A stretch of DNA of 64,000 bases from assembly GCA_041687695.1 (NCBI GenBank), contig JAWLBL010000022.1:32001-96000 (forward strand), written 5' to 3'. Below the pieces are notes generated by a model. The model saw only the letters and a program-made list of their open reading frames with translations. It made no database searches and was not told the DNA's origin. The translations under genes were made by a program, and so were the position numbers. Origin of the DNA: Myxococcota bacterium (GTDB lineage: Bacteria; Myxococcota_A; UBA9042; PHBI01; JAWLBL01). Every line of letters starts with the position of its first letter. Position 1 is the stretch's first letter. Below, piece by piece: positions 6,971 to 23,076 of the stretch.

Positions 6971-9031
6971 TCAGACCCAGTTGTCGGGGACGGCGGCGGG
7001 GTCGAGGTCGCGCAGGATGCCGACGAGCAGCGTGTAGGCCGGGTCGTCGGCCGCGCCCGGGTAAGCGGCGATCTGGGCCAGGGCGGCGTCGCGGGTCAGG
7101 GCGTCGAACCGGGGCATCGTCGCGTCGACGCGCTTGTACGCGGCCTCGAGGGCGGGGCCGTGGGTCGCCATGAAGTGCTTGGTCAGCGTCGGCCAGTAGC
7201 GCAGGTACAGCGTGCGCTTCATGGCCAGCTCGTACTTGGCCAGCTCGCCGCCCAGGCGATGGCCGAAGTTGCCGGTCAGGGCCTGCAGCTGCGTGTAGAG
7301 CGTGTCCAGCTCGGGCTTGACGATCTTGCCCTGGTCGTAGGCGGCGTAGAAGTGGGCGAGGCCCGAGTCGACCGTGGCCTTGAGCGTGGCGAAGTCCTGC
7401 TGGGCCTCGGGCGAGGCGGTCTCGTAGGACTCGGCGCCGTCGGGCGCCTTGGTCCACACGGCGATGTTCTGGTCGCGCTTGCCGGACTGACCGGCGATCT
7501 GCTCGCGCTTGCCCTGGAGCTTTTCGGGGTCGAGGTCGCCGCGGGTCACGTCGACCCAGCCGCCGATGTGCTCGAGCGCGCCCGTCGCCGCCGAAGGCGA
7601 GTAGCCGACGTAGGCCCAGATGCTCTTCACGTTGGGGAAGATGGCCTTGTACTGGTCGAGCTTGCGGCTCTGGCCGGTGTTGCAGGCCGACAGCATGAGG
7701 TCCTCGACCTGGCCGACCGCCATCGGGAAGATCTTGCCGAGGTCCTGCAGGTGATCGAACGACAGCGAGCCGTTGTCGTCGCCCCAGATGGACCAGCCGC
7801 CGCTGTGACCCGACAGGACGACGCGCTTGATGAGGCGTTGGCCGGTCTCGGCCTCGTTGAGCACCTGCGCGAGCTGCGCCACCTCGTCCATCGCCGAGGC
7901 GCCGGCCCGCTTGATGAAGGCCTCGAGCAGCGCCGAGCGCTCGGGCGACAGGTTCGGGATGGAAGCCAGCCAGGCGGTCAGGCCCTCGTCGGTCTGGAGG
8001 TCGACCGTCTGGCCGCCCACCTTGGCCGTGTCCTGCTTGGTCGCGCCGACGACCGAGGTCACCTTGGCCGAGCCGGCCTTGGACTCGAGCGTCTTCTTCT
8101 CGAGGTGCTTGGACGACGGGTTCAACCCCACGTACAGGATGTCGTCGCTCTTGACGTTGGCTTCGAGGCCCGCGCCGCCGGGCGATTGGCTGAGCCACTG
8201 CAACGTGATGTTGCCGACCTTGCCGTCGGCGTCGAGGCCCTTGGCGGCCTGCCAGGCGGCGATCTTCTCGACCAGCTCCGCGCCCAGCGACGCGCCGCTG
8301 GCGCCGACCACCGCGGCGATCTGGGCCCAGATCTCGGCCGAGTGGCGGCGGGACTCGTTGTAGCGCACCGCCGAAGCCACCTGCGCCGAGGTCAGCGTCC
8401 CGGGCGCCGCCGTGGCCCCGTCGTTGCGCATCTGGACCGCGCCGCCGGCGCCCCCCACGTCCGACGCCCCGACCTGCGCGTCGAGCAGATCCTGCGCCGA
8501 CTGCCCCGACACGACCCGCTGGGCCACCGCGTCGGCGTGCTGCTCGTAGCGGTCGCCCTCGGCGCCGACGCCGCCCGGGACGCTGACGCCCGCGCGCTGC
8601 TGCACGACGTGCGCCGCCTCGTGGGCCGCCGTGAACAGATCCGGCGCGCCCGCAAAGGCGATGGTGTCGCCGGTGGCGTAGGCCTGCGCGCCCATCGCGT
8701 CCGCCGCCTGGGCCGCCTGCGCGCCCGTGTGCGCCTGTACGCCGCTGACGTCGTGCGCGCCGAAGGCCTGCTGGATGCGGTCGAGGTGCGGGAGCGCGCC
8801 ACCCGAGCCCGCGACGCCCTGTCGCGCCAGCGCGGCCGTCGCCTCGGGCCCGGCCTTGGCGCCGGCCGCCGCCCGCATCATGACGGGCTGGTGAGCCGGA
8901 GACAGCGCGCGCACCTGCTCGGCGTAGGGCTTCCCGGCCAGATCACGCCGCGCGGCTCGATCGGGACGGGCCGCGCCGGGGGCGGCGTCCTCGAGGCGCT
9001 GCGGGTCACGCACGTCGGTCACTTTCGGCAT
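6971..9031 (-). CDS. DUF4157 (eCIS core domain) protein with PG-binding-like segment and C-terminal caspase/CHAT-like protease domain
   Basis: [48 protein letters not shown] (DUF4157); [14 protein letters not shown] (PG-binding-like); VVLSGHS...LMLSACNT (His/Cys dyad spacing of clan CD proteases). Confidence 0.8.
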
Positions 9032-9150
9032 TCGCGCACTCTAACGCGCGCGCATGTGCGTCCGCAACGGGTTCGTCGCATGAGCGTCCGCATCCGGGTT
9101 CGTGAAGTGCCTGGTGGCGGCGCGGGTCCGGGCCGGCTAGGATGCGGCCG

Positions 9151-9789
9151 ATGCGACTGTCGATCCTCGCCTTGGCGCTCGTGCTGCTGACCACCGCCCC
9201 CGTCCGCGCCGAGCCGCCGCCCGCCGCCCCCGATCCCGCGCCCAAGCCGCCGCCCGTGACGGTGCAGCTGGAAGTGACGCAGCCGCTGAGCCTGGTCGAG
9301 TGGGTCGCGCCCGGCCAGAAGACCGGGTCCGTCTCGCTCGACGGCGAGGTGCGCGTGCGCATCGCCAATCCCGGCACGACGCCGGTGCCGATCCAGTGGC
9401 TCGAGGTGCACGGGCTGGTCTTCGTCGACGCCGCGTCCGGCCGCGAGCACGTCGTCGTGCACCCGTGCCAGTGCGTCAAGGACGCGACCGGTCCCCTCGA
9501 GGCCACGCGCGTCGTGCCGCCCGGCGGCGAGCAGGTCCTGACGCTGGACGAGTGGGGCTGCAGCTCGACCTGGACGCCCCCGCCACCGGGTCGGTATGCC
9601 GTGCGTTATCGTGTGTCATCTCCGCAGGGGGCCGCGCGCCGCCCGGAGGATCGCTCGCGCCCGCCCAACGAGCTGGTGCAGGCCTGTCGTGCGCGCCTGG
9701 CCGCGCCCGAGACGTGGGCGGCCGCGGCGATCTCGGCGCCGGTCGAGGTGACGCTGCGCAAGCCCAAGCGCCAGCGAATCTCCGAGTAG
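9151..9789 (+). CDS. Secreted hypothetical protein
   Basis: Signal peptide MRLSILALALVLLTTAPVRA; GC3-biased frame. Confidence 0.7.
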   Translation: MRLSILALALVLLTTAPVRAEPPPAAPDPAPKPPPVTVQLEVTQPLSLVEWVAPGQKTGSVSLDGEVRVRIANPGTTPVPIQWLEVHGLVFVDAASGREHVVVHPCQCVKDATGPLEATRVVPPGGEQVLTLDEWGCSSTWTPPPPGRYAVRYRVSSPQGAARRPEDRSRPPNELVQACRARLAAPETWAAAAISAPVEVTLRKPKRQRISE

Positions 9790-9839
9790 CGCCCGACTCG
9801 GCTCGACGTGATCGGGCGGACGAGGCAACATCCGGCGCC

Positions 9840-11273
9840 ATGACGGTGAACACATCCGTAGCGTCGGCGGCCGACCGCCGGGGTGTCTGGGGCGAGGTGG
9901 CGCAGGCGGTGCCCGAGCGGGGCGCGCTGGCCGACGCGATGGTGCGCGAGCTGCACGAAGGGCTGACGCTGCTGGGGTCGTTGCCGCCGGCGGTGACGTT
10001 CTTCGGCGGAGCGCGCGTGCGGGCGGGCGACCCGGCCTACGCGGCGGCCGAGCGCATGGGCGAGCTGCTGGCCGCGCGCGACGTGCCGCCGCGGACCGGG
10101 GCGGGGCCGGGCATCATGTCGGCGGTCCCCGAGGGCTTCCGCCGGGCGCGGGCGGCGGCGGGCGACGGGGCCGCGGCGCGGGCGGCGGGCGAGGGTGGGC
10201 CGCCCGAGGGGCCGCAGGGGACCGGGCAGCTGCTGACGCAGGGGTTCAACATCGTGCTGCCGTTCGAGCAGATGGTGAACCCCGCCATCGACGTGTCGCT
10301 CGAGCTGGCGCACTTCCCGACGCGCAAGCTGATGCTGTACGCGAACTGCCTGGGGCTGGTCATCTTCCCGGGCGGGTTCGGGACCCTGGACGAGCTGCTC
10401 GAGGTGTGGCGGCTGGCGCACGCGGGGCGGCTGACGTACCCGTTCGTCCTGTACGGGCGCGAGTTCTGGGGGCCGCTGGGCGAGGGGCTGACCCGGGCGG
10501 CCGAGGCGGTGCCGGCGGCGGGGATCCCGCGCGAGGCGTTCGACCGCCTGCTGCTCACGGACGACGCCGAGCAGGCGATCGCGCATCTGCTCGCGAGCGA
10601 CGCGCCGACCCACGGCGGGCTGGGCGAGCCGCTCGAGGGCCTGGGCCAGCGCATCGCGCACGAGCTGGTCGAGGGGCTGGGGTTCCTCGAGAGCCTGACG
10701 CCGGCGGTCACCGTGCTGGGCGGCTCGCGCCTCGAGGAGGACGCGGCCTGCCTGGGGGCGGCGCGCGAGCTGGCGCGGCTGCTGGCGCGCGAGGGCGTCC
10801 CGACCCGCACCGGCGGCCCCGGCGGGCTGTCGGTGGCGCTGGCGCGAGGCGGCCACCTGGGATCGGCCTATCTGCCGCAGCAGGCCTTCGGCATGCGCCG
10901 CGAGGACGCGCGCAACCTGTACGGCGCCGACCGCGTGCACCTGGTCAACGACCGCCTGACCCACAAGGTGCTGCTGACCGAGAACGCGCGCGCCGTCGTC
11001 GCGCTGCCCGGCGGCCTCGGCACCCTGGACGAGCTGTTCAGCGTCCTGTGTCAGATGCAGACCGGCAAGATCGCCCTGCGGCCGGTCGTGCTGGTCGGCA
11101 CCACCTTCTGGGCGCCGCTGTGGGACGCCCTGCGCGCGACCATGCTGGATGGCCCGCGCCAGACCATCGGCCCGCACGATCTGGCCCTGGTCACGATGAC
11201 CGACGACCCGGCCGAGGCCGCCCGCCTCTGCCTGACCCCGCCCGCGCCGCGTCCGCCCCGAACGTCTCGGTGA
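9840..11273 (+). CDS. Tandem two-domain LOG family (Rossmann-fold nucleotide phosphoribohydrolase) protein
   Basis: Two PAVT.xGG.R / GPG / PGGxGTLDE units (FPGGFGTLDEL and LPGGLGTLDEL). Confidence 0.85.
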   Translation: MTVNTSVASAADRRGVWGEVAQAVPERGALADAMVRELHEGLTLLGSLPPAVTFFGGARVRAGDPAYAAAERMGELLAARDVPPRTGAGPGIMSAVPEGFRRARAAAGDGAAARAAGEGGPPEGPQGTGQLLTQGFNIVLPFEQMVNPAIDVSLELAHFPTRKLMLYANCLGLVIFPGGFGTLDELLEVWRLAHAGRLTYPFVLYGREFWGPLGEGLTRAAEAVPAAGIPREAFDRLLLTDDAEQAIAHLLASDAPTHGGLGEPLEGLGQRIAHELVEGLGFLESLTPAVTVLGGSRLEEDAACLGAARELARLLAREGVPTRTGGPGGLSVALARGGHLGSAYLPQQAFGMRREDARNLYGADRVHLVNDRLTHKVLLTENARAVVALPGGLGTLDELFSVLCQMQTGKIALRPVVLVGTTFWAPLWDALRATMLDGPRQTIGPHDLALVTMTDDPAEAARLCLTPPAPRPPRTSR

Positions 11274-11307
11274 CGCTCGCCGCGTCCTTCGCCTCGAGGA
11301 GCCCCTC

Positions 11308-11679
11308 ATGGACAAGCCCAAGCCCGGCACCATCGGCTGGCACGACCTGACCGTCCCCAACGCCGACGAGGTCCGCGACTTCTACGCCAAGGTCGCCAAC
11401 TGGACCTTCGAGGGCCTGAGCATGGGCGACTACGAGGACTACGTCATGAAGACGGACGGCGGCGACGTCGTGGGCGGCGTCTGTCACCGCCGCGGTCCCA
11501 ACGCCGACCTGCCGCCCATCTGGATGATGTACATCGTCGTCGAGGACATGGAGGCCAGCCTGAGGGCCGTCCGCGAGGGCGGCGGCGAGGTCCTGCGCGA
11601 CACCCGCAACGGCCCCGCCGGCATGGTCGTCATCAAGGACCCCGCCGGCGCCGTCTGCGCCCTGTACCAGGCCGAGTAG
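11308..11679 (+). CDS. VOC/glyoxalase family protein
   Basis: GTIGWHDLTV.NA..VRDFY, WMMYIVVED, IKDPAGAVCAL; GAGGAG RBS. Confidence 0.9.
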   Translation: MDKPKPGTIGWHDLTVPNADEVRDFYAKVANWTFEGLSMGDYEDYVMKTDGGDVVGGVCHRRGPNADLPPIWMMYIVVEDMEASLRAVREGGGEVLRDTRNGPAGMVVIKDPAGAVCALYQAE

Positions 11680-11706
11680 CGTCCGTCCTGGCCGGGAGCC
11701 CGGCGA

Positions 11707-11733
11707 CCTGGGATCGCCGGCTTCCAGCCGGCC
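11707..11733 (-). repeat. Single REP copy, inverted relative to the downstream array, at the RAYT 5' end
   Basis: CCTGGGATCGCCGGCTTCCAGCCGGCC is the exact reverse complement of the array core GGCCGGCTGGAAGCCGGCGATCCCAGG. Confidence 0.85.
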
Positions 11734-11740
11734 GAGTCCG

Positions 11741-12328
11741 CACAAGGCTTGGTTCTCGCGCGACTACCTGCCGCACCTCGACGTTCCGGGTCTCGTCCAA
11801 TCCATCACGTTCCGACTCGCTGATTCACTGCCCCGCGCCTTGGTTCGACAGCTCGAGTCGAAGCTGAGCCATGTGCCCCCGGATGAGCGAGCCCGTGAAC
11901 AACAGGACCGCCTTCAAGCGCTTCTGGATCGCGGCTACGGTGAGTGCCATCTCAGCGACGCTCGCGTCGCGTCCGTCGTCGAGGACGCGCTGCTCCACTT
12001 CGACGGCCGACGCTACCGGCTCATGGCCTGGTGCATCATGCCGAACCACGTGCATGCGGTGATGGAAAGGATGCAAGGTCATGCGCTGCATGCGGTGGTG
12101 CACTCGTGGAAGTCGTTCACCGCGACCGCGGCGAACCGGCTGCTGGGGCGGTCGGGGCCGTTCTGGATGCGCGAGTACCACGACCGGTATGTCCGGGATC
12201 TCGGGCATCTGGAGGCGGTCAAACGCTACGTCGAGGACAATCCGGTCGCTGCGGGGCTGGTGTCGGAGTCCTGGGAGTGGAGGTGGAGCAGCGCTTGGAG
12301 GGGCCGCTCGAAGGAGCGGTCAGACTGA
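11741..12328 (+). mobile_element. REP-associated tyrosine transposase (RAYT, HUH Y1); true start unclear
   Basis: In frame upstream of the ORF-track start: SRDYLPH...ITFRLADSLP; then WCIMPNHVH (HUH), WKSFTA, FWMREYHDRYVRD, YVEDNPVAAGL, WRWSSA. Confidence 0.9.
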
Positions 12329-12343
12329 ATCCGTCCAAGAGGA

Positions 12344-12730
12344 GGGCGGGGTTGCTGGCCGGCTGGAAGCCGGCGATCCCAGGGGGCCGGACGCGGGGAT
12401 GGGCGGGGTTGCTGGCCGGCTGGAAGCCGGCGATCCCAGGGGGCCGGACGCGGGGATGGGCGGGGTTGCTGGCCGGCTGGAAGCCGGCGATCCCAGGGAG
12501 GCCGGACGCGGGGACGGGCGGGGTTGCTGGCCGGATGGAAGCCGGCGATTCCAGGGAGGCCGGACGCGGGGATGGGCGGAGCTGCTGGCCGGCTGGAAGC
12601 CGGCGATCCCAGGGAGGCCGGACGCGGGGTTGGACGGGGTTGCAGGCCGGCTGGAAGCCGGCGATCCCAGGGAGGCCGGACGCGGAGAGGGGCGGAGCTG
12701 CAGGCCGGCTGGGAGGCGGCGCTGCCAGGG
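12344..12730 (+). repeat. Tandem REP array: six 57-58 bp units plus one degenerate unit
   Basis: Unit GGGCGGGGTTGCTGGCCGGCTGGAAGCCGGCGATCCCAGGG(A)GGCCGGACGCGGGGAT with hairpin GCCGGCT-GGA-AGCCGGC; units start at about 12344, 12401, 12458, 12516, 12574, 12632 and 12690. Confidence 0.92.
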
Positions 12731-12924
12731 GGGGCGGTGGGATGCCGCCGGTGGGAGGGGCCGGACGTGGGGCGCGGTTATGGGGGCGGTGGCTTGCCGC
12801 AGTGTCGGGGGCGAAGTAGAGCTGGCGCACTTCGAGACCGAGAGGTGAGCAATGGGCGCGGGGCGGTCCCGGGACCCGGGCGCCTCGGTGCGTGCGCGGC
12901 GGGGCCGCGGGGCAGGAGCAGTTC

Positions 12925-13773
12925 ATGCAGGCCGAACGGACGGTGCTGGTGACGGGCGCGACCGGGCAGCAGGGCGGCGCGGTGGCGCGGGCGTTGGTTG
13001 GACAGGGGCTGGCGCTGCGGGCGCTGACGCGGCACCCCGAGTCGGACAAGGCGAGGGCGCTGGCGGCGCAGGGCATCGAGGTCGTGCGGGGCGACATGGA
13101 TGACGCGGCGTCGCTGCGGCAGGCCCTGCAGGGGGTGTGGGGCATCTTCGCCGTCCAGAACACCTGGGAGGCCGGCGTCGAGCGCGAGGAGGAGCAGGGC
13201 AAGCGCCTGGCCGTGGTCGCGCGCGAGGCGGGCGTCGAGCACTTCGTGTACTCGTCGGTCGGCTCGGCCGAGCGGGACACCGGCATCCCGCACTTCGACA
13301 ACAAGCACCGGGTCGAGCAGAAGCTCCGCGCGCTGGGCTTCGCGTCGCACGTCATCCTCAGGCCCGTGTTCTTCATGGAGAACCTGGTCTCGCCTTGGTT
13401 TCTGAACGGCGACCAGCTGGTCTCGGCGCTGGACCCGGTGACCCGGGTGCAGATGGTCGCGGTCCAGGACATCGGCCGGATCGGCGCGCAGGCGTTCTTG
13501 CAGGCCGACGCGATGAACCGCGCCGAGATCGAGCTGGCCGGCGACGCCGCGACGATGCCCGAGGCGGCCGCCGTGCTGTCGCGGGCGCTCGGCCGCAAGA
13601 TCGAGTACGCGCGGATCCCGATGGACGCGATCCGTAAGAACAGCGAGGACTTCGCGCTGATGCTCGAGTGGTTCGAGCGGGACGGCTACGCGGCCGACAT
13701 CGGGGCGCTCGATCGGCGCTTCGGGCCGATGACGCGCCTGACGGAGTGGGCGCGCGGGCTGCCGCGCGCCTGA
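12925..13773 (+). CDS. NmrA/HSCARG family NAD(P)-binding protein
   Basis: VLVTGATGQQGGAVA, HFVYSSVG, IPHFDNK, LRPVFFMEN; AGGAG RBS. Confidence 0.92.
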   Translation: MQAERTVLVTGATGQQGGAVARALVGQGLALRALTRHPESDKARALAAQGIEVVRGDMDDAASLRQALQGVWGIFAVQNTWEAGVEREEEQGKRLAVVAREAGVEHFVYSSVGSAERDTGIPHFDNKHRVEQKLRALGFASHVILRPVFFMENLVSPWFLNGDQLVSALDPVTRVQMVAVQDIGRIGAQAFLQADAMNRAEIELAGDAATMPEAAAVLSRALGRKIEYARIPMDAIRKNSEDFALMLEWFERDGYAADIGALDRRFGPMTRLTEWARGLPRA

Positions 13774-13808
13774 GGGGCGGCTCACCGGTCGACCGCGGCC
13801 GCGGGCGC

Positions 13809-15287
13809 TCAGGCGAGCGGCGCCCCGGCCGCGGCCAGGCAGGCGGCGAGGCGGCCGACGTGGGCGGGGAGCTCGGAGGCGGGCGTGGCGGCGAAGCCCA
13901 GGATCAGGCCGGGCCGGACGTGCGCGGGCGCTGCGTAGTAGGTCGACAGCGGGGCGGGGGCGAGGCCCGCCTTGGCGGCGCGTCGGACGAGGGCGAGGTC
14001 GTCGACGCCGGGCGGCAGGTAGACGACCTGGTTGACGCCGGCGTCGCTGGGGGCGAGCGGGTGGTCTGGGAGGTGGGCGGCGAGGGCGGCGTGGAGGGCG
14101 CCGCGCCGCTCGGTGTACAGGGCGCGGAGGCGGCGGAGGTGGGCCTCGTAGTGGCCCTCGGCCATGAAGTCGGCGAGGGCGGCCTGGGCGACGGAGGAGG
14201 GGTGGGTGTCGGCCAGCCGGCGGGCGGCCAGGAAGGCGTCGAGCAGCCGGTCGGGGACGACCAGATAACCCAGGCGCAGGGAGGCGAAGGTCGCGCGGGA
14301 GAAGGTGCCGGCGTACAGGGTGCGGCCGTCGGGGTCGAGGCTCTGGAGCGAGGCCAGCGGGCGGCCGGCGTAGCGGAAGTCGGCGTCGTAGTCGTCCTCG
14401 AGCAGCCAGGCGTCGCGGCGGCGGGCCCAGTCGAGCAGGGCCAGGCGGCGATCGAGCGGCAGGGTCATGCCGAGCGGGAACTGGTGCGAGGGCGTCACGC
14501 AGGCGAGGCGGGCGTCTTCCGGGACGGCGCCGGCGGCTGCGAGGTCGAAGCCGTGGGCGTCGACCGGGATGGGCAGCGGGCGGGCGCCGGCGAAGGCGAG
14601 GGCGTCGTGCAGGCCGTGGTAGCCGGGGTCCTCGACGAGGGCGACGTCGCCAGGGTCGAGCAGGACGCGAGCGACGAGGTCGAGCGCTTGCTGGGAGCCC
14701 GAGACGATGAGGACCTGGTCGGGCGTGGCGCGGACGGCGCGGGTGGACGCGAGGAAGGCGGCGACCTGCGCGCGCAGGGCCGGGAGGCCGGCGGGCGGCA
14801 GCGCGGAGGTCAGGGCGCGCCCCGGGCGGCGCCAGCGTTGGCCGATGAGGCGGCCCCACAGGTGGAACGGGAAGGCGTCGACGGCGAGGGCGCCGGGGGC
14901 GAGCGGGCCCTGGGCGCGGTGCGGGCGGACGGGGAGGCTGGTCAGCCAGGCGGCGCGCTGGCTCAGGCGCGGGGCGGCGGCGACGGGGGCGGGCTCGCGC
15001 GGGCCGAGCAGGGCCTGCGGCAGCTCGGCGACGCGGGTGGCCGAGCCGGACGTGGCGACGAGGTACCCTTCGGCGGTCAGCTGGTCGTAGGCGGCGAGCA
15101 CCGTGTTGCGCGACACGCCCAGGGCGGCCGCGAGGGCGCGCGTCGAAGGGACGGCGGTGTCGGGGGCGAGGCGGCCGGCGAGCACGGCCTCGCGCAGCTG
15201 CGCGACGAGCTGGCGCTGGAGCGGCTCGTGGGAGCTGCGGTCGAGGGACGGGAGCGAGACGGGGAGGGGCGGTCTGCGGCGTGACAT
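13809..15287 (-). CDS. MocR/GabR family transcriptional regulator (GntR HTH + PLP aminotransferase domain)
   Basis: VPSTRALAAALGVSRNTV..AY.QL.AEGY; GSQQALDL, EDPGY, TPSHQFPLG, EDDYD, YAGTFS. Confidence 0.93.
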   Translation of the reverse strand: MSRRRPPLPVSLPSLDRSSHEPLQRQLVAQLREAVLAGRLAPDTAVPSTRALAAALGVSRNTVLAAYDQLTAEGYLVATSGSATRVAELPQALLGPREPAPVAAAPRLSQRAAWLTSLPVRPHRAQGPLAPGALAVDAFPFHLWGRLIGQRWRRPGRALTSALPPAGLPALRAQVAAFLASTRAVRATPDQVLIVSGSQQALDLVARVLLDPGDVALVEDPGYHGLHDALAFAGARPLPIPVDAHGFDLAAAGAVPEDARLACVTPSHQFPLGMTLPLDRRLALLDWARRRDAWLLEDDYDADFRYAGRPLASLQSLDPDGRTLYAGTFSRATFASLRLGYLVVPDRLLDAFLAARRLADTHPSSVAQAALADFMAEGHYEAHLRRLRALYTERRGALHAALAAHLPDHPLAPSDAGVNQVVYLPPGVDDLALVRRAAKAGLAPAPLSTYYAAPAHVRPGLILGFAATPASELPAHVGRLAACLAAAGAPLA

Positions 15288-15382
15288 GGACGGGTCATAC
15301 TGGATCCATCGATTCGCCGAAAGTGGCGCTTTCGTTGGGTCCGGTCGGCGGCGACGATGGGGGCTCGCGAAGGAGGCGAGCC

Positions 15383-16015
15383 ATGAACGGGACCCCACCG
15401 AGCCCAAGAGCCACCGTGCGGCGCGTGCCGCAGCGGGCCGACTACGACTTCGAGGCCATCGCGGCCATCCTGGACGAGGCCTGGGTGGCCCACGTGGGGA
15501 TGGCGGCGGACGGGCAGCCCTTCGTGCTGCCGATGGCCTGCTGGCGCGAGGGCGACCGCCTGCTGCTGCACGGCGCCACCTCGAGCCGCTTGATGCGGCA
15601 CCTGGCGAGCGGCGCGCCGATGTGCGTGGCGGTGACCCTGCTCGACGGGCTGGTGCTGGCGCGCTCGGCGTTCCATCACTCGATGAACTACCGCTCGGTG
15701 GTCGTCCTCGGGCGCGCCGAGCCGCTGGAGGGCGCCGCGAAGGCCGCGGCGCTCGACGCCTTCGTGGAGCGGGTCGAGCCGGGGCGGTCGGGGCGCGTGC
15801 GCCGATCGAGCGCGCAGGAGCTGAAGGCGACGATGGTGCTGGCGGTGCCGCTCGCCGAGGCGTCGGCCAAGGTCCGGACGGGCGGACCCAAGGACGACGC
15901 CGAAGACCTGGGCCGGCCGGTCTGGGCCGGGGTCGTGCCCATCCGCGAGGTGCGCGGTGAGCCGGTGGAGGACGAGCCCAAGGAGCGGCCGGGCGCGGGC
16001 GGGCTGGCGCGATGA
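15383..16015 (+). CDS. Pyridoxamine 5'-phosphate oxidase-like flavin-nucleotide-binding protein (NimA-like)
   Basis: RA.YD...I..ILDE, LHGATSSRLM, DGLVLARSAFHHSMNYRSVV, SAKVRTGGP.DD; divergent from MocR. Confidence 0.9.
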   Translation: MNGTPPSPRATVRRVPQRADYDFEAIAAILDEAWVAHVGMAADGQPFVLPMACWREGDRLLLHGATSSRLMRHLASGAPMCVAVTLLDGLVLARSAFHHSMNYRSVVVLGRAEPLEGAAKAAALDAFVERVEPGRSGRVRRSSAQELKATMVLAVPLAEASAKVRTGGPKDDAEDLGRPVWAGVVPIREVRGEPVEDEPKERPGAGGLAR

Positions 16016-16018
16016 GGC

Positions 16019-16053
16019 GAGCCGGCGTCCCGTGGTCGGCGGGACGCCGGCTC
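16019..16053. terminator. Perfect 14-bp hairpin between convergent genes
   Basis: GAGCCGGCGTCCCG-tggtcgg-CGGGACGCCGGCTC; no U-tract. Confidence 0.6.
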
Positions 16054-16060
16054 TCACCGG

Positions 16061-16636
16061 TCAGGGCGCGGCGGCGGTGACGCGCTCGCCCTGGGGGGCC
16101 TTGGGGTTGGCCGGGGTCGTGCCCTGCAGGGTCACGACGTAGGCCGAGACGGCCTGGACTTCGGCCGGCTTGAGCTGGTCCTTCCAGGCGAGCATGCCCT
16201 TGTCGGGGACGCCGACGTTCACGATGTGCAGGACCTCGGCCACCGAGCCGTCGCCGTGCAGCCAGAACTCGTCGGTCAGGTTGGGGCCGACCAGGCCGCC
16301 GCCGTCGGGGCCGTGGCAGTTGGCGCAGCGCGAGTCGTACAGGCCCTTGCCCTCGGCGACCACCGCCGCGTCCTGGGTCAGGGCCTGCAGCTCCTCGGGC
16401 GACAGCTTCGGCGCCTCCTTGGCCGGGCCGTAGGCCGCCATCTCCTTGGCGTACTCGTCCTGCGGCAGGTCGCCCGGCCCCCAGTGCATGTAGGGGATGT
16501 AGACGACGGTCCAGGCGATGGTCAGGTAGAACAGCCAGACCCACCACCGGGGCAGGGGGTTGTCGTACTCGGCGATGCCGTCGAAGACGTGCTCACGGAC
16601 CTCGTCGGTCACCTGGTGCTTGGTCGCGTCAGCCAT
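16061..16636 (-). CDS. ccoP: cbb3-type cytochrome c oxidase subunit III (mono-heme)
   Basis: H.FDGIAEYDNPLPRWW, CANCHG, GPNLTDEFWLHG, KGMLAW. Confidence 0.93.
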   Translation of the reverse strand: MADATKHQVTDEVREHVFDGIAEYDNPLPRWWVWLFYLTIAWTVVYIPYMHWGPGDLPQDEYAKEMAAYGPAKEAPKLSPEELQALTQDAAVVAEGKGLYDSRCANCHGPDGGGLVGPNLTDEFWLHGDGSVAEVLHIVNVGVPDKGMLAWKDQLKPAEVQAVSAYVVTLQGTTPANPKAPQGERVTAAAP

Positions 16637-16856
16637 GGTTGCACTCCTTACCGGACGAGGGGGCCTCCGGGCCGGGGCGGCCCGTGGCGTCGTCGAACAC
16701 GAGGCGGCTCCGGTCGGCGTAGATCTCGCGGGCGCCCCGCCGGCAGATCCACAGGACCGCCCCGGCGAACATGGCGACGAACAGGACCACGGTGACCAGC
16801 GGGAAGAGCAGCAGATCGGTGCGGCTCAGGGTCTCACTCATCATCGATGCGAGCAT
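16629..16856 (-). CDS. ccoQ: cbb3-type oxidase small subunit CcoQ
   Basis: Single TM (VLFVAMFAGAVLW) followed by SRLVFDD; between ccoO and ccoP; GGAGG RBS. Confidence 0.75.
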   Translation of the reverse strand: MLASMMSETLSRTDLLLFPLVTVVLFVAMFAGAVLWICRRGAREIYADRSRLVFDDATGRPGPEAPSSGKECNHG

Positions 16857-16868
16857 GGTGACCTCCCT

Positions 16869-19118
16869 CTACTCGAGGCTCGCGTGGGTGTCGGCCGCCT
16901 TGCCGGGCGCGGCCGGATCGGCCGGGGTCGGCTCCTTGCCGATGTCCGTCCCGAGGCGCTGCAGGTAGGCGATGAGCGCCACGATCTTCTTGTCCGACAC
17001 GTCGGGCAGGCCCTGCGCCTTCAAGCCCTCGGCGATCTTCAGGGCCTGGCCCCACGCGAGGGTCTCGGCGTCCGCGATCTCCTGGTCGGAGTAGGGCGCG
17101 CCCAGCGTGCGCAGCGCGGTCATCTTCGACTGGAGGAGATCGAGGTCCAGCCCGTCCTCGAAGAGCCACGGGTAGGACGGCATGATGGACCCCGCCGACA
17201 TGCTGCGGGGATCGAGCATGTGGTGGTAGTGCCAGGAGTCCGAGTATTTGCCACCGACGCGGTGCAGATCCGGGCCGATTCGGCGCGAACCCCACTGGAA
17301 GGGGCGGTCGTAGATGAACTCGCCGGCCTCGGAGGGGCGGCCGAAGCGCAGGGTCTCGTCGCGGAAGGGGCGGACCATCTGCGAGTGGCAGGTGTAGCAG
17401 CCCTCGGCGACGTAGATGTCGCGGCCCTCGAGCTCGAGCGGCGTGTACGGTTTGACCGAGGCGATGGTCGGCACGTTCTTCTCGATGAGCATGCTCGGGA
17501 TGATCTCGAAGGCGCCGCCGATGGCCACCGCGATGGTGGTGTAGACCGTGAAGCGGATGGGCCGGCGCTCGAGGAGGTCGTGCCAGAAGCCCTTGGCCGT
17601 GGCCGGGGGCAGGTCGACGCCGGCGACGGCGGTGGCCGGCAGGGGACGGGCCTCGGGCAGCAGCGGCGGGGCGCTGGCCTGCTCGTCGCGCATGTCGCCC
17701 TTGCCGCCGGCCGTCTTGACCAGGTTGACGATCATCAGGATGACGCCCGTGAGGTACAGCGCCCCGCCGACCGCGCGGACCCAGTACATCGGGATGATGG
17801 CGGCGACGGTCTCCTCCCAGTTGCGGTAGACCAGGGCGCCGTCGGCGTCGAGCTCCTTGAGCATCAGGCCCTGGGTGACGCCCGCGACCCACATCGACAG
17901 GGTGTACAGGCCGATGCCGGTCAGGCCGAACCAGAAGTGGGTGGAGGCCAGCTTGGTCGAGTACAGCTTGGTGCGATAAAGGCGCGGGAACAGCCAGTAG
18001 ATCATGCCGAAGGCGAAGAAGCCGTTCCAGCCGAGGACGCCCGAGTGCACGTGGCCGATGGTCCAGTCGGTGTAGTGCGACAGCGCGTTGACCGACTTGA
18101 TGCTGAGCAGCGGGCCCTCGAAGGTGGCCATGCCGTAGAAGGTGATGGCGACCACGAAGAACTTCACGACCGGGTCGGTGCGCAGCTTGTCCCAGGCGCC
18201 GCGCAGGGTCAGCAGGCCGTTGATCATGCCACCCCAGCTGGGGGCGACGAGCATGACCGAGAAGACCATGCCGAGGGTCTGCGCCCAGTCGGGCAGCGCG
18301 GTGTAGAGCAGGTGGTGCGGGCCGGCCCAGATGTACAGGAAGATGAGCGACCAGAAGTGCACGATGGACAGGCGATAGCTGTACACCGGGCGCCCGGCGG
18401 CCTTGGGCATGAAGTAGTACATCAGGCCCAGGATGGGGGTCGTCAGGAAGAAGGCGACGGCGTTGTGGCCGTACCACCACTGGACCAGCGCGTCCTGAAC
18501 GCCCGCGTAGGCCGAGTAGCTCTTGAACCAGTCGACCGGCAGGGCCAGCGAGTTGACGATGTGCAGCAGCGCGACCGTGACGATGGACGCGATGTAGAAC
18601 CACAGGGCCACGTACAGGTGGCGCTCGCGGCGCTTGGCGATGGTGCCGAAGAAGTTGACCGCGAAGACGACCCAGATGGCGGCGATGGCCAGATCGATGG
18701 GCCACTCGAGCTCGGCATATTCCTTACTGGAGGTGATGCCGAACGGCAGCGTCAGCGCGGCCGAGACGATGATGGCCTGCCAGCCCCAGAAGTGGATCCT
18801 CGACAGCTTGTCGCTGTACATGCGCGCCTTGAGCAGGCGCTGCGTCGAGTAGTACATGCCGGCGAACATGCTGTTGCCGACGAAGGCGAAGATGGCCGCG
18901 TTCGTGTGCAGCGGACGCAGGCGGCCGAAGGTGATCCAGGGCAGATCGAAGTTGAGCTTGTGCGCCGCCAGCTCGAGCGCGAGCCACAGGCCCGCGAGCA
19001 TGGCGACGGCGCCCCACACGACGGTGGCGATGAGGAAGTGCCTCACCGTCTTGTCGTCGTAGTGGAAGGTCTCGAGCTGTTCCTGTCGGGTCACGACAGG
19101 TTCGGCGGCGGGTTTCAT
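16869..19118 (-). CDS. ccoNO: Fused cbb3-type cytochrome c oxidase subunits I/II
   Basis: [33 protein letters not shown]-terminal [23 protein letters not shown]. Confidence 0.96.
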
Positions 19119-19336
19119 CGTGAGCGCTCCTGGGGGTGCCGGGGACGGGAGGGGAGGGGACGGGAAGCGGTAGGTGCGCCGAGCCGCGGGTCGGCGTCGG
19201 CGTCGTCGAAGAGGATCCGGACCGGGGGCGTGTCGAGGTCGTCCATCTGGCCGCTGCGCAGCGCCCAGCGGAACGCGGCGATGGCCGCCGCCGTGACGAG
19301 CACGGACAGCGGGACGAGGAAGAAGAGCGCTTCCAT
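19115..19336 (-). CDS. ccoS: cbb3 oxidase maturation protein CcoS/FixS
   Basis: From ATG 19336: [11 protein letters not shown]...[24 protein letters not shown]. Confidence 0.9.
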
Positions 19337-19338
19337 GG

Positions 19339-20745
19339 TCAGACGGTCCTCGAGAAGGTCGGGCGGGCGGCGGGGCGCTCGCGCAGGTGACGGTCGAAGG
19401 CCATGGCGACCACCCGGACGAACAGCTTGCCGATGGGCGTGACCGTGAGGCCCTCGGGGGTGCGCGTGACCAGGCCGTCGGCCTCGAGGGGCGCGAGCTG
19501 GGCCAGCTCGGGGGCGAAGTCGCGCGCGAGGGACAGGCCGAAGCGGGCCACGAGGTCGGCCTCGCGGACCCGGAAGTTGCACATCAGCTCGGCGATGACG
19601 AAGCGGCGCGCCTCGTCGTCGGCCGACCGGACGAAGCCGCGCTCGACGGGCAGGCGGCCGGCGTCGATGGCCTTGTAGTAGTCCTTGAGATCCTTGGCGT
19701 TCTGGAAGAAGCCGCCGCCGACGTCGCCGATGCTGGTCAGGCCCAGGCCGACCGTCTCGAGCTCGCCGAACTCGCCGGCGACGGCGGCGGGCCGGACCGT
19801 GTAGCCCTGGAAGTTGCGGTACAGCGTGCCCTCGCGCTGGGCGATGGCGATCTCGTCGTCGGGCCGCGCGAAGTGGTCCATGCCGATGCCGACGTAGCCG
19901 GCCTCGAGGAAGGCCTCGCGCGAGTCGCGGAAGATGCCGAGCTTCTCGTCGCCCTGCGGCAGGGTCGCCGGGTCGATGGCCTCCTGCTGGCGGCGCAGCC
20001 AGGGGACGTGGGCGAAGCTGTAGAGGGCGACGCGGTCGGGCTGGAGGGCCAGCGTCTCACGGACCGTTTGCGCGAAGCCGCGTCGCGTCTGGTGGGGCAG
20101 CCCGTAGATGAGGTCGACGTTGACGCTGTCGAACTCGGCCTCGCGGGCGGCCTCGACCAGCGCGCGCACCATGGCGACCGGCTGGATGCGCCGGACGGCC
20201 TCCTGCACGCGCGGATCGAAGTCCTGGATGCCCATGGACAGGCGGGTGAACCCGAGGGCGCGCAGGGCGCGGACCTGCTCGGGCGTGCCGTGGCGGGGGT
20301 CTATCTCGATGGCCACCTCGGCGCCCGGCTCGAAGGTGAACCGGCGGCGCAGGGCGTCCATCAGCTGGGTGAGCTGGTCGATGCCGTAGTAGTTGGGCGT
20401 GCCGCCGCCGAGGTGCAGCTGGGCGAGCCGCGTGCGCTCGCCGAGGCGGTCGGCGACGAGATCGACCTCGCGCAGCAGGCGGCGCAGGTAGGCCTCGAGC
20501 TTGCCCGCGCTGCGCGTGATGATGACGTTGCAGCCGCAGTAGGTGCACAGGCTCTCGCAAAAGGGCATGTGGACGTACAGGCTGATGGGCGACGCGCGGC
20601 GGCTGGCGCGGTCGAGGGCGGCCTCGTAGTCGGCCGCGGCGACGGGGCCGAAGCGGTCCGCGGTCGGGTAGCTGGTGTACCGCGGGCCGGGGCGGTCGTG
20701 GCGCGCCACCAGGAGGGGGTTGGGTTCCAGGGATATCGCCGACAT
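19339..20745 (-). CDS. hemN: Oxygen-independent coproporphyrinogen III oxidase
   Basis: [27 protein letters not shown] (radical SAM), [26 protein letters not shown]. Confidence 0.96.
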
Positions 20746-20881
20746 TCGGACCTCCGGGGGGCCCGAAGCAGCGGGGTGGCCCTCCCGAGCCGCAGCCTGG
20801 GCAAGAAGCGGGCCAAGGCGCGGAGGTCGGCCTGGATGGCGGCTTTGGCGCGATCGACGGCCGGAGAGGGACCGGGAGATG

Positions 20882-20906
20882 CGTCAAGGGTGTGCCATGT
20901 CGCACA
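20882..20906 (-). promoter_or_regulatory. Palindromic site TGTGC-N6-GCACA next to a TTGACG -35-like hexamer upstream of hemN-ccoSNOQP
   Basis: TGTGCCATGTCGCACA at 20891-20906; TTGACG (minus strand) at 20887-20882. Confidence 0.4.
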
Positions 20907-20943
20907 GGGCGTCGTGCGGGGTGACACCCGGGGTGGGGCGAGG

Positions 20944-21774
20944 TCAGCGGGGGCGGGCGCGGCGGGCGCGTTCGACGACGTAGAGCAGGCGGGCGGCGAA
21001 GAGGACGGCGTCGGTGTTGTCCTCGGCGACGGTGTCCGAGACCGAGGAGGAGCGCAGGTGGCGCGTGCGGTCGCGCAGGCGCTGCGTCGGCACGGGCGGG
21101 ACGCGACCGGCGGCGCGCTCGAGGGCGGCGTCGACGCGGGCGCCGGGGCAGGCGGCCTCGAGGCGGGCGAGCAGGGCGAGGTAGTTGGTCTGGGCGGAGA
21201 CGACGCGCGCGTCGCCGAGGCCTTCGTAGTCGAGGGCGTCGCGGGACAGGCGGACGCACAGGTCGGGCCCGACGGACCAGAGCAGCGCGAAGGCTTCGTC
21301 TTCCGTGGTGCGGTCGACCTCGCGCGTGGTCTTGGACTTGGACATCGGGACGCCCATGGCGAGGGCGCCCAGGCGGACCTTCTTGCGGGTGGTCTCGGTG
21401 GTGGTCTCGCTGGCGTGCAGGGCGCGGGCGCGGCAGATGAGGCCGACGCGGGCGAGCGGGACGGCGGTGGCGGCGCCGCGGCGGTCGAGGAGCTCGAGGT
21501 GATCGGGGGCGAAGCGGAAGGCGCGGGCGTCGAGGACCGGGGGGACGTGGTCGAGGACGGCGTCGTCGAAGGCCCAGGCTTCGAGGCCGGCCTGGGTGAG
21601 CGTGGCCGCGACGGCGTGGGCCTGGGCGGGGGTGTCGCGCCAGGCGGCGATGAAGGGCAGGCCGCGGAGCAGGACCTGGCGGTGCTCGTAGGCGCCGCCG
21701 CCGACGGTGTCGGCGAGGGCGGCCGACGCGGCGGCGGGATCGGCTTGGCCGGGGGCGACGAGGACGAAGTGCAC
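20944..21774 (-). CDS. Hypothetical protein
   Basis: 276-aa ORF, GTG start with GGAGG upstream, protein-like composition; no recognised motif. Confidence 0.65.
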   Translation of the reverse strand: MHFVLVAPGQADPAAASAALADTVGGGAYEHRQVLLRGLPFIAAWRDTPAQAHAVAATLTQAGLEAWAFDDAVLDHVPPVLDARAFRFAPDHLELLDRRGAATAVPLARVGLICRARALHASETTTETTRKKVRLGALAMGVPMSKSKTTREVDRTTEDEAFALLWSVGPDLCVRLSRDALDYEGLGDARVVSAQTNYLALLARLEAACPGARVDAALERAAGRVPPVPTQRLRDRTRHLRSSSVSDTVAEDNTDAVLFAARLLYVVERARRARPR

Positions 21775-21945
21775 GGCGGGGCCTCCGGCGCGAGCCTAAC
21801 ACGGGCAGAGGCGTTCGGCGGTTTCGTGCGGTGACGCCAGCCCGCTTTCGGCTCGCGAGCAGGCGTGCTAGCGTGCGGGATACCGATGAGGGGAGCGGGA
21901 AGCGTGCGGCCGGCGCCGGCCGGGCGGCGCCCGGAGGAGGGGGAG

Positions 21946-23076
21946 ATGTACGAGGCACAGGTCCGTAAGAGCCCGGTCACCGACGCCGCCGAGGCGGCCG
22001 CGCCCGCGGCGATGAAGGGTGGGGCGCGCGCGCAGCTCGCCGGCAAGTCCTACGCCGAACAGGCGGCGGCGCTCTCTCCGACGTCGCGGAACGCGCCGGC
22101 CGCGACGCCGGCGCCGCAGAACGCGCCGGTGCAGCTCAAGAAGAAGAAGAAAAAGAAGAAGAAGCAGCAGCAGCGCCGCCCGCAGACGAACCAGCGGCCG
22201 CAGCAGAACCAGGATCCGGTCAAGGCGACGACCCCGGTCGAGGAGCCGAAGCTCGAGGAGCCCAAGGTCGAGGAGCCGGTCGAGCTCGAGGACCCGGCCC
22301 TGCGCGAGAAGCACCGCGACGGCTCGGTCGAGTACCAGCGGTACACCGGAGACCTGTTCGTCAACGGCGTGTCGCCCGAGGACGTCATCCAGGGCTCGAT
22401 CGCCGACTGCTACCTCATCGCGGCGCTGTGCGCGGTCGCCAGCTCCAACCCCGATCTCATCACGAGCGGCGTCAAGCCGGCCGGCGTGGGCGCGTGGGAG
22501 GTGCGCTTCTTCGAGCGGCAGGCGAACCGGACCTTCAAGGAGGTCTGGATCAAGGTGGACGCCGATCTGCCGACGCTCAAGGGCCGCACCGCGCCGGCCT
22601 ACGCGCGGTCGGGCGACAAGAACGACAAGGGCCTCGAGCTGTGGCCCGCCGTCTTCGAGAAGGCCTACGCCGTCTGGAAGCAGGGCTACGACAAGATGGG
22701 CGAGGGCGGCTCGTCGAAGGGCGCGCTCGAGGCGCTGACCGGCAAGTCGGTCGACACGATGACCACCGAGTGGACGCCCGCCGACACGATCTGGGCCAAG
22801 CTCGAGAAGGCGTCCAAGGACGGCAAGCTCGGCAAGGCGGCCTCGGCCGGCACCCACGGCAAGGACCGGCAGGATCTGTACGAGGGCAAGCGCCTGTACG
22901 CCTGGCACGCCTACACCGTCATGGGCATCGAGTCGGCCGGCGGCGAGCGCTTCGTCATCCTGCGCAACCCGTGGGGCCAGTCGGAGCCCGGCGCGGACGG
23001 CAAGGACGACGGCATCTTCAAGCTGACGCTCGAAGAGTTCATGAAGTACTACCAGAACCTGAACCTCGAGCTCTGA
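21946..23076 (+). CDS. Calpain-like (peptidase C2) cysteine protease with low-complexity N-terminal extension
   Basis: QGSIADCYLIAAL (Cys), ELWPAVFEKAYA, HAYTV (His), LRNPWG (Asn); ATG 21946 after GGAGGAGG. Confidence 0.9.
   Translation: MYEAQVRKSPVTDAAEAAAPAAMKGGARAQLAGKSYAEQAAALSPTSRNAPAATPAPQNAPVQLKKKKKKKKKQQQRRPQTNQRPQQNQDPVKATTPVEEPKLEEPKVEEPVELEDPALREKHRDGSVEYQRYTGDLFVNGVSPEDVIQGSIADCYLIAALCAVASSNPDLITSGVKPAGVGAWEVRFFERQANRTFKEVWIKVDADLPTLKGRTAPAYARSGDKNDKGLELWPAVFEKAYAVWKQGYDKMGEGGSSKGALEALTGKSVDTMTTEWTPADTIWAKLEKASKDGKLGKAASAGTHGKDRQDLYEGKRLYAWHAYTVMGIESAGGERFVILRNPWGQSEPGADGKDDGIFKLTLEEFMKYYQNLNLEL

Follow-up and report, generated by a model that had tools for sequence, protein, structure and literature searches.

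Two genes of a 64,000-nucleotide stretch of Myxococcota DNA (assembly GCA_041687695.1, contig JAWLBL010000022.1, positions 32,001 to 96,000 of the forward strand; hereafter the window) encode proteins, P1 and P2, that carry the same 15-residue motif near their N-terminus. This motif is real, conserved and lineage-specific, and is found on hundreds of unrelated proteins of one uncultured class of Myxococcota. It is predicted to be a sequence-specific signal for the loading of cargo into an extracellular contractile injection system (eCIS), a reading that we consider probable. A dispersed ATPase of the Afp15 type can be proposed, more tentatively, as its reader.

In P1 (686 aa; 6971..9031, minus strand), the motif occupies residues 31–45 (8897..8941, minus strand). 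In P2 (376 aa; 21946..23076, plus strand), it reads LAGKSYAEQAAALSP, also at residues 31–45 (22036–22080, plus strand). As stated in the preliminary description, the motif begins at residue 31 in both proteins, with 12 of 15 residues identical, and the two are otherwise unrelated: a BLASTP comparison of the pair aligns residues 27–48 only (E 0.001; runner-up E 0.74). The consensus is L-[RAK]-G-[KML]-[SGPD]-Y-[DA]-E-[QG]-[VA]-x-[MA]-L-x-P. In 93 copies, the successive positions are occupied by L (100%), R (68%), G (94%), K/M/L, S (48%), Y (100%), D/A, E (84%), Q (81%) or G (19%), V (59%), A (58%), M/A, L (100%), A/S and P (98%), frequencies that are biased towards the seed sequences; three positions (L, Y, L) are invariant. 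The 30 residues that precede the motif in P1 (8942..9031, minus strand) form a polar leader predicted to be disordered, given its composition and a pLDDT score below 50 for residues 1–23. The leaders of the motif proteins in general are rich in A/S/T/P/Q/G/R. In the predicted model of P1 (mean pLDDT 89.8), the motif region appears as a short helix (residues 25–31), a turn and a second helix (36–43) within this low-confidence leader (mean pLDDT 72 for residues 31–40, with values below 50 around the motif), so that the motif may be a short helix-turn-helix embedded in a disordered tail.

The genome to which the window belongs (7.97 Mb, 73% GC, 63 contigs, 99% complete) holds many more copies. 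A regular expression drawn from the two window motifs matches seven open frames, all 26–34 codons past an ATG. Leave-one-out scores of 10 members range from 27 to 48 bits against a maximum of 23.6 in the reversed six-frame proteome. The recurrence of the motif is not due to chance. Iteration of a hidden Markov model yields 13 members above the reversed control, and the final 41-row profile (A2) yields 15 members on 11 contigs, 14 of which had served as training rows. About six further, weaker copies were picked by eye, some of them in tandem; two degenerate copies in tandem are seen at L020:9522-9700, L023:3899-4050 and L025:2520-2664, and in L028, L029 and P0063. The motif genes are mostly stand-alone. 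Six of the 21 examined are followed by a gene on the same strand at most 11 bases downstream, possibly an immunity gene. No convincing shared operator was found in the 160 bases upstream of 20 members. The hexamer TTGCGA is present in 7 of these 20 regions versus 1.6% of genes (a background that includes genes inside operons) and may merely be a -35 element.

The motif is thus not confined to the two window proteins, and the same holds at the scale of the class, where the profile gives 236 matches at E 0.01 in 49 of 87 genomes. A strict DNA pattern applied to 41 genomes gives 31 matches versus two with the reversed pattern; it is present in 13/17 genomes of the order and in 3/23 other genomes of the class. 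Within the order, each genome has 2 to 26 motif-bearing candidates. Outside the class, profile matches are found in only 2/203 genomes (seven matches, all N-terminal, most followed by a DUF4157-like stretch). A search of 1.84 billion representative proteins returned 68 matches, one of which is false (P0064, a His-rich repeat). The first Leu of the motif lies at residues 25–45 in 59 of the 68 (median start, residue 34) and in 43 of the 50 that are not close to training rows. Among the long matches not close to training rows, the motif is located within the first 60 residues in 23/25, versus 13% expected. In all 20 matches sampled from distant families, a start codon is found 27–43 residues upstream. 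An exact-pattern scan of GTDB gave 65 matches. Of these, 41 scored at most 26 bits, were internal or out of frame in nearly every case and were discarded as chance matches; the other 24, many of which are the same proteins as training rows, are N-terminal (21 in Myxococcota, Myxococcales or Deltaproteobacteria records, three in untitled records). Carriers do lack N-terminal Sec signals, as had been noted for P1 and P2: a hydrophobic window occurs in the first 35 residues of just 2/68 database matches, one of them the false match P0064. The PVQxK-like element proposed to trail the motif is real but loose. It appears as QPVMMR in P1 (8873..8890, minus strand) and as APVQLK in P2 (22123..22140, plus strand), and lies within 30 residues of the motif in 29 of 67 database members. 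In P2, a run of ten lysines directly follows the PVQL element (22138-22167); this run is not present in P2 homologues.

The scans place the motif at the N-terminus of proteins with very different C-terminal parts, with or without DUF4157 (eCIS_core, PF13699). Across carriers, the payloads include a calpain, a clan-CD protease, a UCH-like protease, a muramidase plus LysM, C39-like, L,D-transpeptidase, D,D-carboxypeptidase and CHAP domains, a transglutaminase and an ADP-ribosyltransferase. Within the genome itself, they comprise a UCH-like protease, a muramidase with three LysM, unknown domains and, among the weaker copies, a C39-like domain. These payloads are unrelated and, judged from their domains, effector-like, toxicity being predicted from domain content only. 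DUF4157 follows the motif in 5/27 relatives, 12/68 database matches and 5/20 distant matches, and is present in 6 of the 15 members of this genome. No family of Pfam or NCBIfam covers the motif in scans of the 41 motif rows. In several members, the motif is followed by a small MreC-barrel-like domain, which is also found stand-alone between the two C5 paralogues (loci concerned: L016:2756-3607, P0008, P0013, P0056 and G000:C5 near 20450).

The independence of the motif is seen on the payload of P1. Among 120 homologues of this payload, the slot at residues ~25–45 is occupied by this motif in 32 (by regular expression), by GN[QA]A in 27, by an SNxGRAA-like motif in 13, by GKRTL in six and by a LysM arrangement in 10; 32 remain unclassified. 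In a tree of the 120 homologues (a quick tree with SH-aLRT support only, rooted at the midpoint), this leader needs four changes, of which well-supported branches force three, and the motif has been kept in a clade of four members that has lost DUF4157. Calpain payloads are associated with the motif only or with the motif plus DUF4157, all three being found together in three distant proteins, and about a dozen P2 homologues have motif variants while many have none. The motif is therefore tied neither to the payload nor to DUF4157. The other leader motifs of P1-payload homologues, GN[QA]A[IV], GKRTL and [TS]N[ST]GRAA (P0147-P0187; P0082/P0110/P0114/P0120/P0124/P0128; P0116-P0134), are candidate address motifs of other lineages. 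In this genome, the GN[QA]A type was tried as a family and rejected: one plausible case was found, with no excess over the reversed control.

An injection machine encoded outside the window had been postulated, and one is indeed found on contig C17. This locus encodes Pvc16, two sheaths, two tubes, a 1656-residue low-complexity protein, a CIS_tube-LysM protein, a VgrG-like spike, gp25, baseplate J and Tail_P2_I, and amounts to a complete eCIS structural locus; its order and flanks are the same in genome G008. It includes no ATPase gene. The winged-helix N-domain gives ten dispersed matches in the genome, six of which are in long ATPase frames, and these six ATPases are of the Afp15 type, with the winged-helix domain plus two AAA domains. 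Those of contigs C3 and C30 are orphans and three others adjoin giant DUF4157 genes. Of the C3 ATPase, 87% of the length can be aligned with the ATPase encoded by the Afp locus of pADAP (28% identity, E 7e-54); the C3 N-domain contains an invariant patch. In pADAP, the corresponding gene sits between the tape-measure and DUF4255 genes.

Several other genes of the genome touch on this machinery. The giant DUF4157 proteins (~1500–3200 aa) have their own adjoining Afp15-type ATPase (G000:C11:53653-65992, C18:101323-111305, C5:190666-197621); their N-termini differ, and related N-termini are found on C53, C60 and C9. At G000:C23:76394-85504, an Afp15-type ATPase gene is convergent with a 1549-aa gene whose product has a GN-type leader motif and no DUF4157 match. 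Two orphan tube genes lie outside the eCIS locus (G000:C8:58055-58765, L014; C27:93633-94139, L015). The C8 tube is extended at its N-terminus, the extension carrying a repeated unit of 12 residues; the C27 tube keeps its neighbour in genome G005. Also recurrent in the class are short, stand-alone DUF4157 proteins whose helical N-terminus is conserved (G000:C19:80347-81093; L189-L193); they are possibly an accessory factor rather than cargo.

Across the class, the motif and the eCIS occur together. Among the 49 motif-positive genomes, Pvc16 is present in 48 and a tube gene in 49, and an ATPase of the C3 type is present in 49, at an ortholog cut-off (E 1e-17) set by the analyst and with one contig-end fragment counted in addition. 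Conversely, the motif is found in 1 of 21 Pvc16-negative genomes. In this exception, G005, there are DUF4157 genes, an orphan tube and 11 winged-helix matches, and a sheath is missing. Since the genes that flank both sides of the eCIS locus in the sister genome are also missing from it (one query per side), the absence of the locus suggests an assembly gap. The contrast least bound to ancestry is that of family f12, where the motif occurs in 11/13 eCIS-positive versus 0/5 eCIS-negative genomes, including a contrast within one genus (G053 versus G054 and G055). G060 (92% complete) has eCIS structural genes, and no Afp15-type ATPase, DUF4157 or motif was found in it. Pvc16 and tube genes are also present in each of the two motif-positive genomes from other classes. 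However, a general eCIS signal is rejected, as 65 of the 67 Pvc16-positive genomes outside the class lack the motif and two have it; the motif is lineage-specific.

Loading that depends on an ATPase and on the N-terminus of the cargo is established for AlgoCIS and PVC (bioRxiv 10.64898/2026.05.27.728243; PMC11495950). In AlgoCIS, both Alg15, the ATPase, and a disordered N-terminus are needed for it, and DUF4157 is not; a recognition specific to each system is the authors' hypothesis (10.64898/2026.05.27.728243). The AlgoCIS cargos Cgo1 and Cgo2 resemble the proteins described here: the N-terminal region is disordered, DUF4157 is optional, the C-terminal payload varies, the genome encodes an Afp15-type ATPase, and leaders are alike within a system and not between systems. 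They differ in that two cargo genes were compared and the loading sequence was called not conserved across systems, whereas a defined 15-residue motif is found here on hundreds of unrelated genes, none of them on the eCIS contig of this genome, in which, moreover, the ATPase genes are located away from the structural locus. The signal peptides of PVC (Pnf and Pdp1, with Pvc15) and the NT20 of Afp18 are likewise polar, non-Sec N-terminal leaders (PMC11495950, 10.1101/2023.11.13.566157, PMC11297309), served by a tandem AAA ATPase with a winged-helix N-domain. However, PVC signal peptides seldom show homology, with groups of related ones in Photorhabdus, and neither a consensus nor conserved residues are given in the accessible parts of the reports (PMC11495950, PMC11297309). 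The Afp18 signal corresponds to the first 20 residues, whereas the present motif lies at ~30–45 with its invariant L, Y and L (10.1101/2023.11.13.566157). More generally, the accessible text of the eCIS literature reports similarity of loading signals within single systems and no conserved sequence or consensus across systems (PMC11297309, PMC11495950, PMC8213781, PMC13266070, 10.1101/2023.11.13.566157, 10.64898/2026.05.27.728243). DUF4157, a known marker of eCIS cargo (PMC8213781), also marks polymorphic effector-like proteins of eCIS genomes at their N-termini, often after the motif (PMC8213781, PMC11297309). The motif lies upstream of it and, because most carriers lack DUF4157, identifies three- to fourfold more proteins. 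Literature searches, in which figures and supplements were outside the scope and subscription journals were largely missing, returned no description of this motif; leader alignments in such figures or supplements may bear on its novelty. Short or modular markers of the dispersed substrates of one machine are known elsewhere, namely the YxxxD/E motif of type VII secretion systems and MIX/FIX of type VI secretion systems (T6SS), which differ in both machine and sequence.

Taken as a whole, these data fit the modular leader that the preliminary description had proposed for routing dispersed effectors to an injection machine: the motif is N-terminal and independent of the payload, and the genome encodes an eCIS. 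Of the refuting conditions set out there, those open to analysis here all turned out in its favour. In the favoured reading, that of a loading signal, the leader, a disordered polar tail of 30 residues, would be engaged by the pore of a hexameric Afp15-type ATPase, and specificity would come from the helical motif, probably through the conserved N-domain of the C3 ATPase. The ATPase would then unfold the payload into the tube. Other lineages would place other short motifs in this slot, so that a payload passing from one lineage to another would receive a new address. The choice of C3 as the reader draws on co-occurrence and is put forward at somewhat less than even confidence. The C30 ATPase is a poorer candidate, as it has clear orthologues in 11/15 order genomes and, in f12, none distinct from the C3 type. 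The payloads would be injected effectors, many of them aimed at other bacteria. Beyond this, an address code can be drawn, more speculatively still, in which the motif of each lineage is read by a cognate stand-alone Afp15-type ATPase and several ATPases sort classes of cargo. In such a code, this motif would pair with the C3 type, and GN[QA]A, GKRTL and SNxGRAA, short motifs found in the same slot, would be the addresses of other lineages, payloads being re-addressed after their transfer.

Several observations weigh against the loading reading or its parts. None of the 15 motif genes is on contig C17, while cargo genes usually lie near the eCIS operon, 88% of them within ten genes (PMC11297309); this trait, which is usual rather than strict, is thus not seen here. 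Half of the DUF4157 genes of the genome (9/18) lack the motif, no immunity-like gene is adjacent to those of P1 or P2, and in close homologues of P2 (P0195, P0199-P0212) the N-terminus is short and lacks the motif. Among Pvc16-positive genomes of the class, 18/66 give no motif match at E 0.01 (one of them, G062, has a weaker variant seen by eye), and 8 of the 49 motif-positive genomes rest on matches weaker than E 0.001. The genomes are related by descent and not independent, so that naive Fisher values overstate the association; in particular, 11 of the 21 Pvc16-negative genomes are one family. Concerning the reader, only two of the six ATPases (C3 and C30) were traced across the class and the pairing was made by elimination, the 49/49 count includes the contig-end fragment and depends on the chosen cut-off, and outside the class the best C3-ATPase match of G223 is no better than a paralogue. 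Finally, the minimal signal of Afp18 is its first 20 residues, which are polar, show no consensus in the accessible parts of that report and tolerate substitutions (10.1101/2023.11.13.566157); therefore, residues 1–30 of the proteins described here could load alone.

This last point underlies the strongest of the alternatives, which we nevertheless find unlikely. According to it, the motif belongs to the eCIS pathway while residues 1–30 do the loading, and the helix binds another partner: the tube wall, a plug or cap, a chaperone, or some factor by which the payload is kept inactive in the producing cell. Besides the sufficiency of a 20-residue polar signal in Afp, a polar stretch does precede the motif in every member, many members (both window genes included) are without an adjacent immunity-like gene, and the co-occurrence data would fit any eCIS component equally. 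However, the narrow distance of the motif from the start and the swap of motif types between lineages on one payload both suit a recognition tag, and G060, where tubes are present without ATPase or motif, also counts against this alternative.

It is more improbable that the motif is a substrate tag of an Afp15-type ATPase for proteins that are unfolded, activated or released in the producer, a role proposed for cytoplasmic CIS, or that leave it by lysis or vesicles. The ATPase does track the motif slightly better than Pvc16 does (49/49 versus 48/49), Afp15-type ATPases are also found in genomes of family f15 that lack an eCIS, and a CIS of Streptomyces is reported to act in the death of the producer's own cell (PMC10020575). 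Nevertheless, the motif is found in 0 of the 11 f15 genomes with such ATPases, and the diversity of payloads together with DUF4157 matches described injected toxins. Still less credit can be given to a functionless inherited 5' module that would have spread by recombination among polymorphic-toxin genes, its link to the eCIS reflecting ancestry only. Such a module would account for the restriction of the motif to one class plus 2/203 other genomes and for the resemblance of the window copies at the DNA level (36 of 45 bases identical). It does not sit well with three invariant residues that persist across families whose flanks share nothing, nor with a motif that is kept after the loss of DUF4157 and is missing wherever the eCIS is missing in f12.

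The preliminary description had left room for another export machine; the eCIS part of that proposal stands, and the part concerning T6SS or type III secretion (T3SS) does not. Type III signals are N-terminal, and a gene for the FlhA/SctV export gate is found in 13/15 genomes of the same order. However, neither TssC (PF05943) of T6SS nor FlhA/SctV (PF00771) was found in this 99%-complete genome, TssC is present in 4 and FlhA/SctV in 22 of the 87 class genomes, and FlhA/SctV is present in 0/18 f12 and 0/27 f10 genomes, families where the motif occurs, so that the T6SS and type III/flagellar readings are rejected as largely refuted and highly implausible.

Both window proteins end in a cysteine protease, as first described, the assignment being made for P2 by a Pfam match and for P1 by a conserved His-Cys pair and a predicted fold. 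P1, the product of a stand-alone gene, has the leader and motif followed by eCIS_core (DUF4157) with HExxH at residues 85–148 (8588..8779, minus strand; PF13699, E 1.1e-12) and PG_binding_1 at residues 249–280 (8192..8287, minus strand; PF01471, E 3.4e-5, above the curated cut-off). Its payload, at residues ~283–532 (7436..8185, minus strand), is predicted from the model and an alignment to have a clan-CD (caspase/clostripain/CHAT-like) cysteine-protease-like fold with an H409/C450 dyad; both residues are invariant in an alignment of 76 homologues. CHAT, gingipain, C11 and caspases match the model at Z 9–13, the best match being SAVED-CHAT (Z 13.1, root-mean-square deviation 2.9 Å, 176 residues aligned), and the best Foldseek E is 1.6e-3. 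The Pfam scan gives no protease match for the payload, which was assigned to no named family, and the PG-binding part was the sole match in a PDB sequence search with the P1 alignment.

P2, also encoded by a stand-alone gene, lacks DUF4157 and consists of the polar leader, the motif, a Lys/Gln/Pro-rich linker and a calpain-family protease. Its Peptidase_C2 domain covers residues 136–347 (22351..22986, plus strand; PF00648, E 6.5e-30, 104.6 bits versus a cut-off of 23.8), with the Cys-His-Asn triad C155/H321/N341. Translation probably starts at the ATG at 21946 and not at the alternative GTG at 21865, because a purine-rich ribosome-binding site (21933..21945, plus strand) precedes this ATG. Elsewhere in the window are a gene for a protein with two LOG/SLOG domains (9300-11273) and one for a fused cbb3-type oxidase subunit I/II (16869-19118).

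The choice of cargo by eCIS is an open question: loading signals are required, and no consensus for them is reported in the accessible literature. With a motif of 15 residues, three of them invariant, recognition becomes accessible to point substitution, and a candidate reader is named. It can also be used as a search tag for cargo, as most candidates lack DUF4157 and none is near the operon in this genome; many of these candidate cargo proteins carry peptidoglycan-directed or unknown domains. This points to the eCIS as a main antibacterial weapon in these uncultured organisms, the majority of which have no T6SS. If the address code is true, this would be the first readable eCIS signal, and it would expose a genome-wide arsenal of effectors that is mostly invisible to prediction based on DUF4157 or on the operon.

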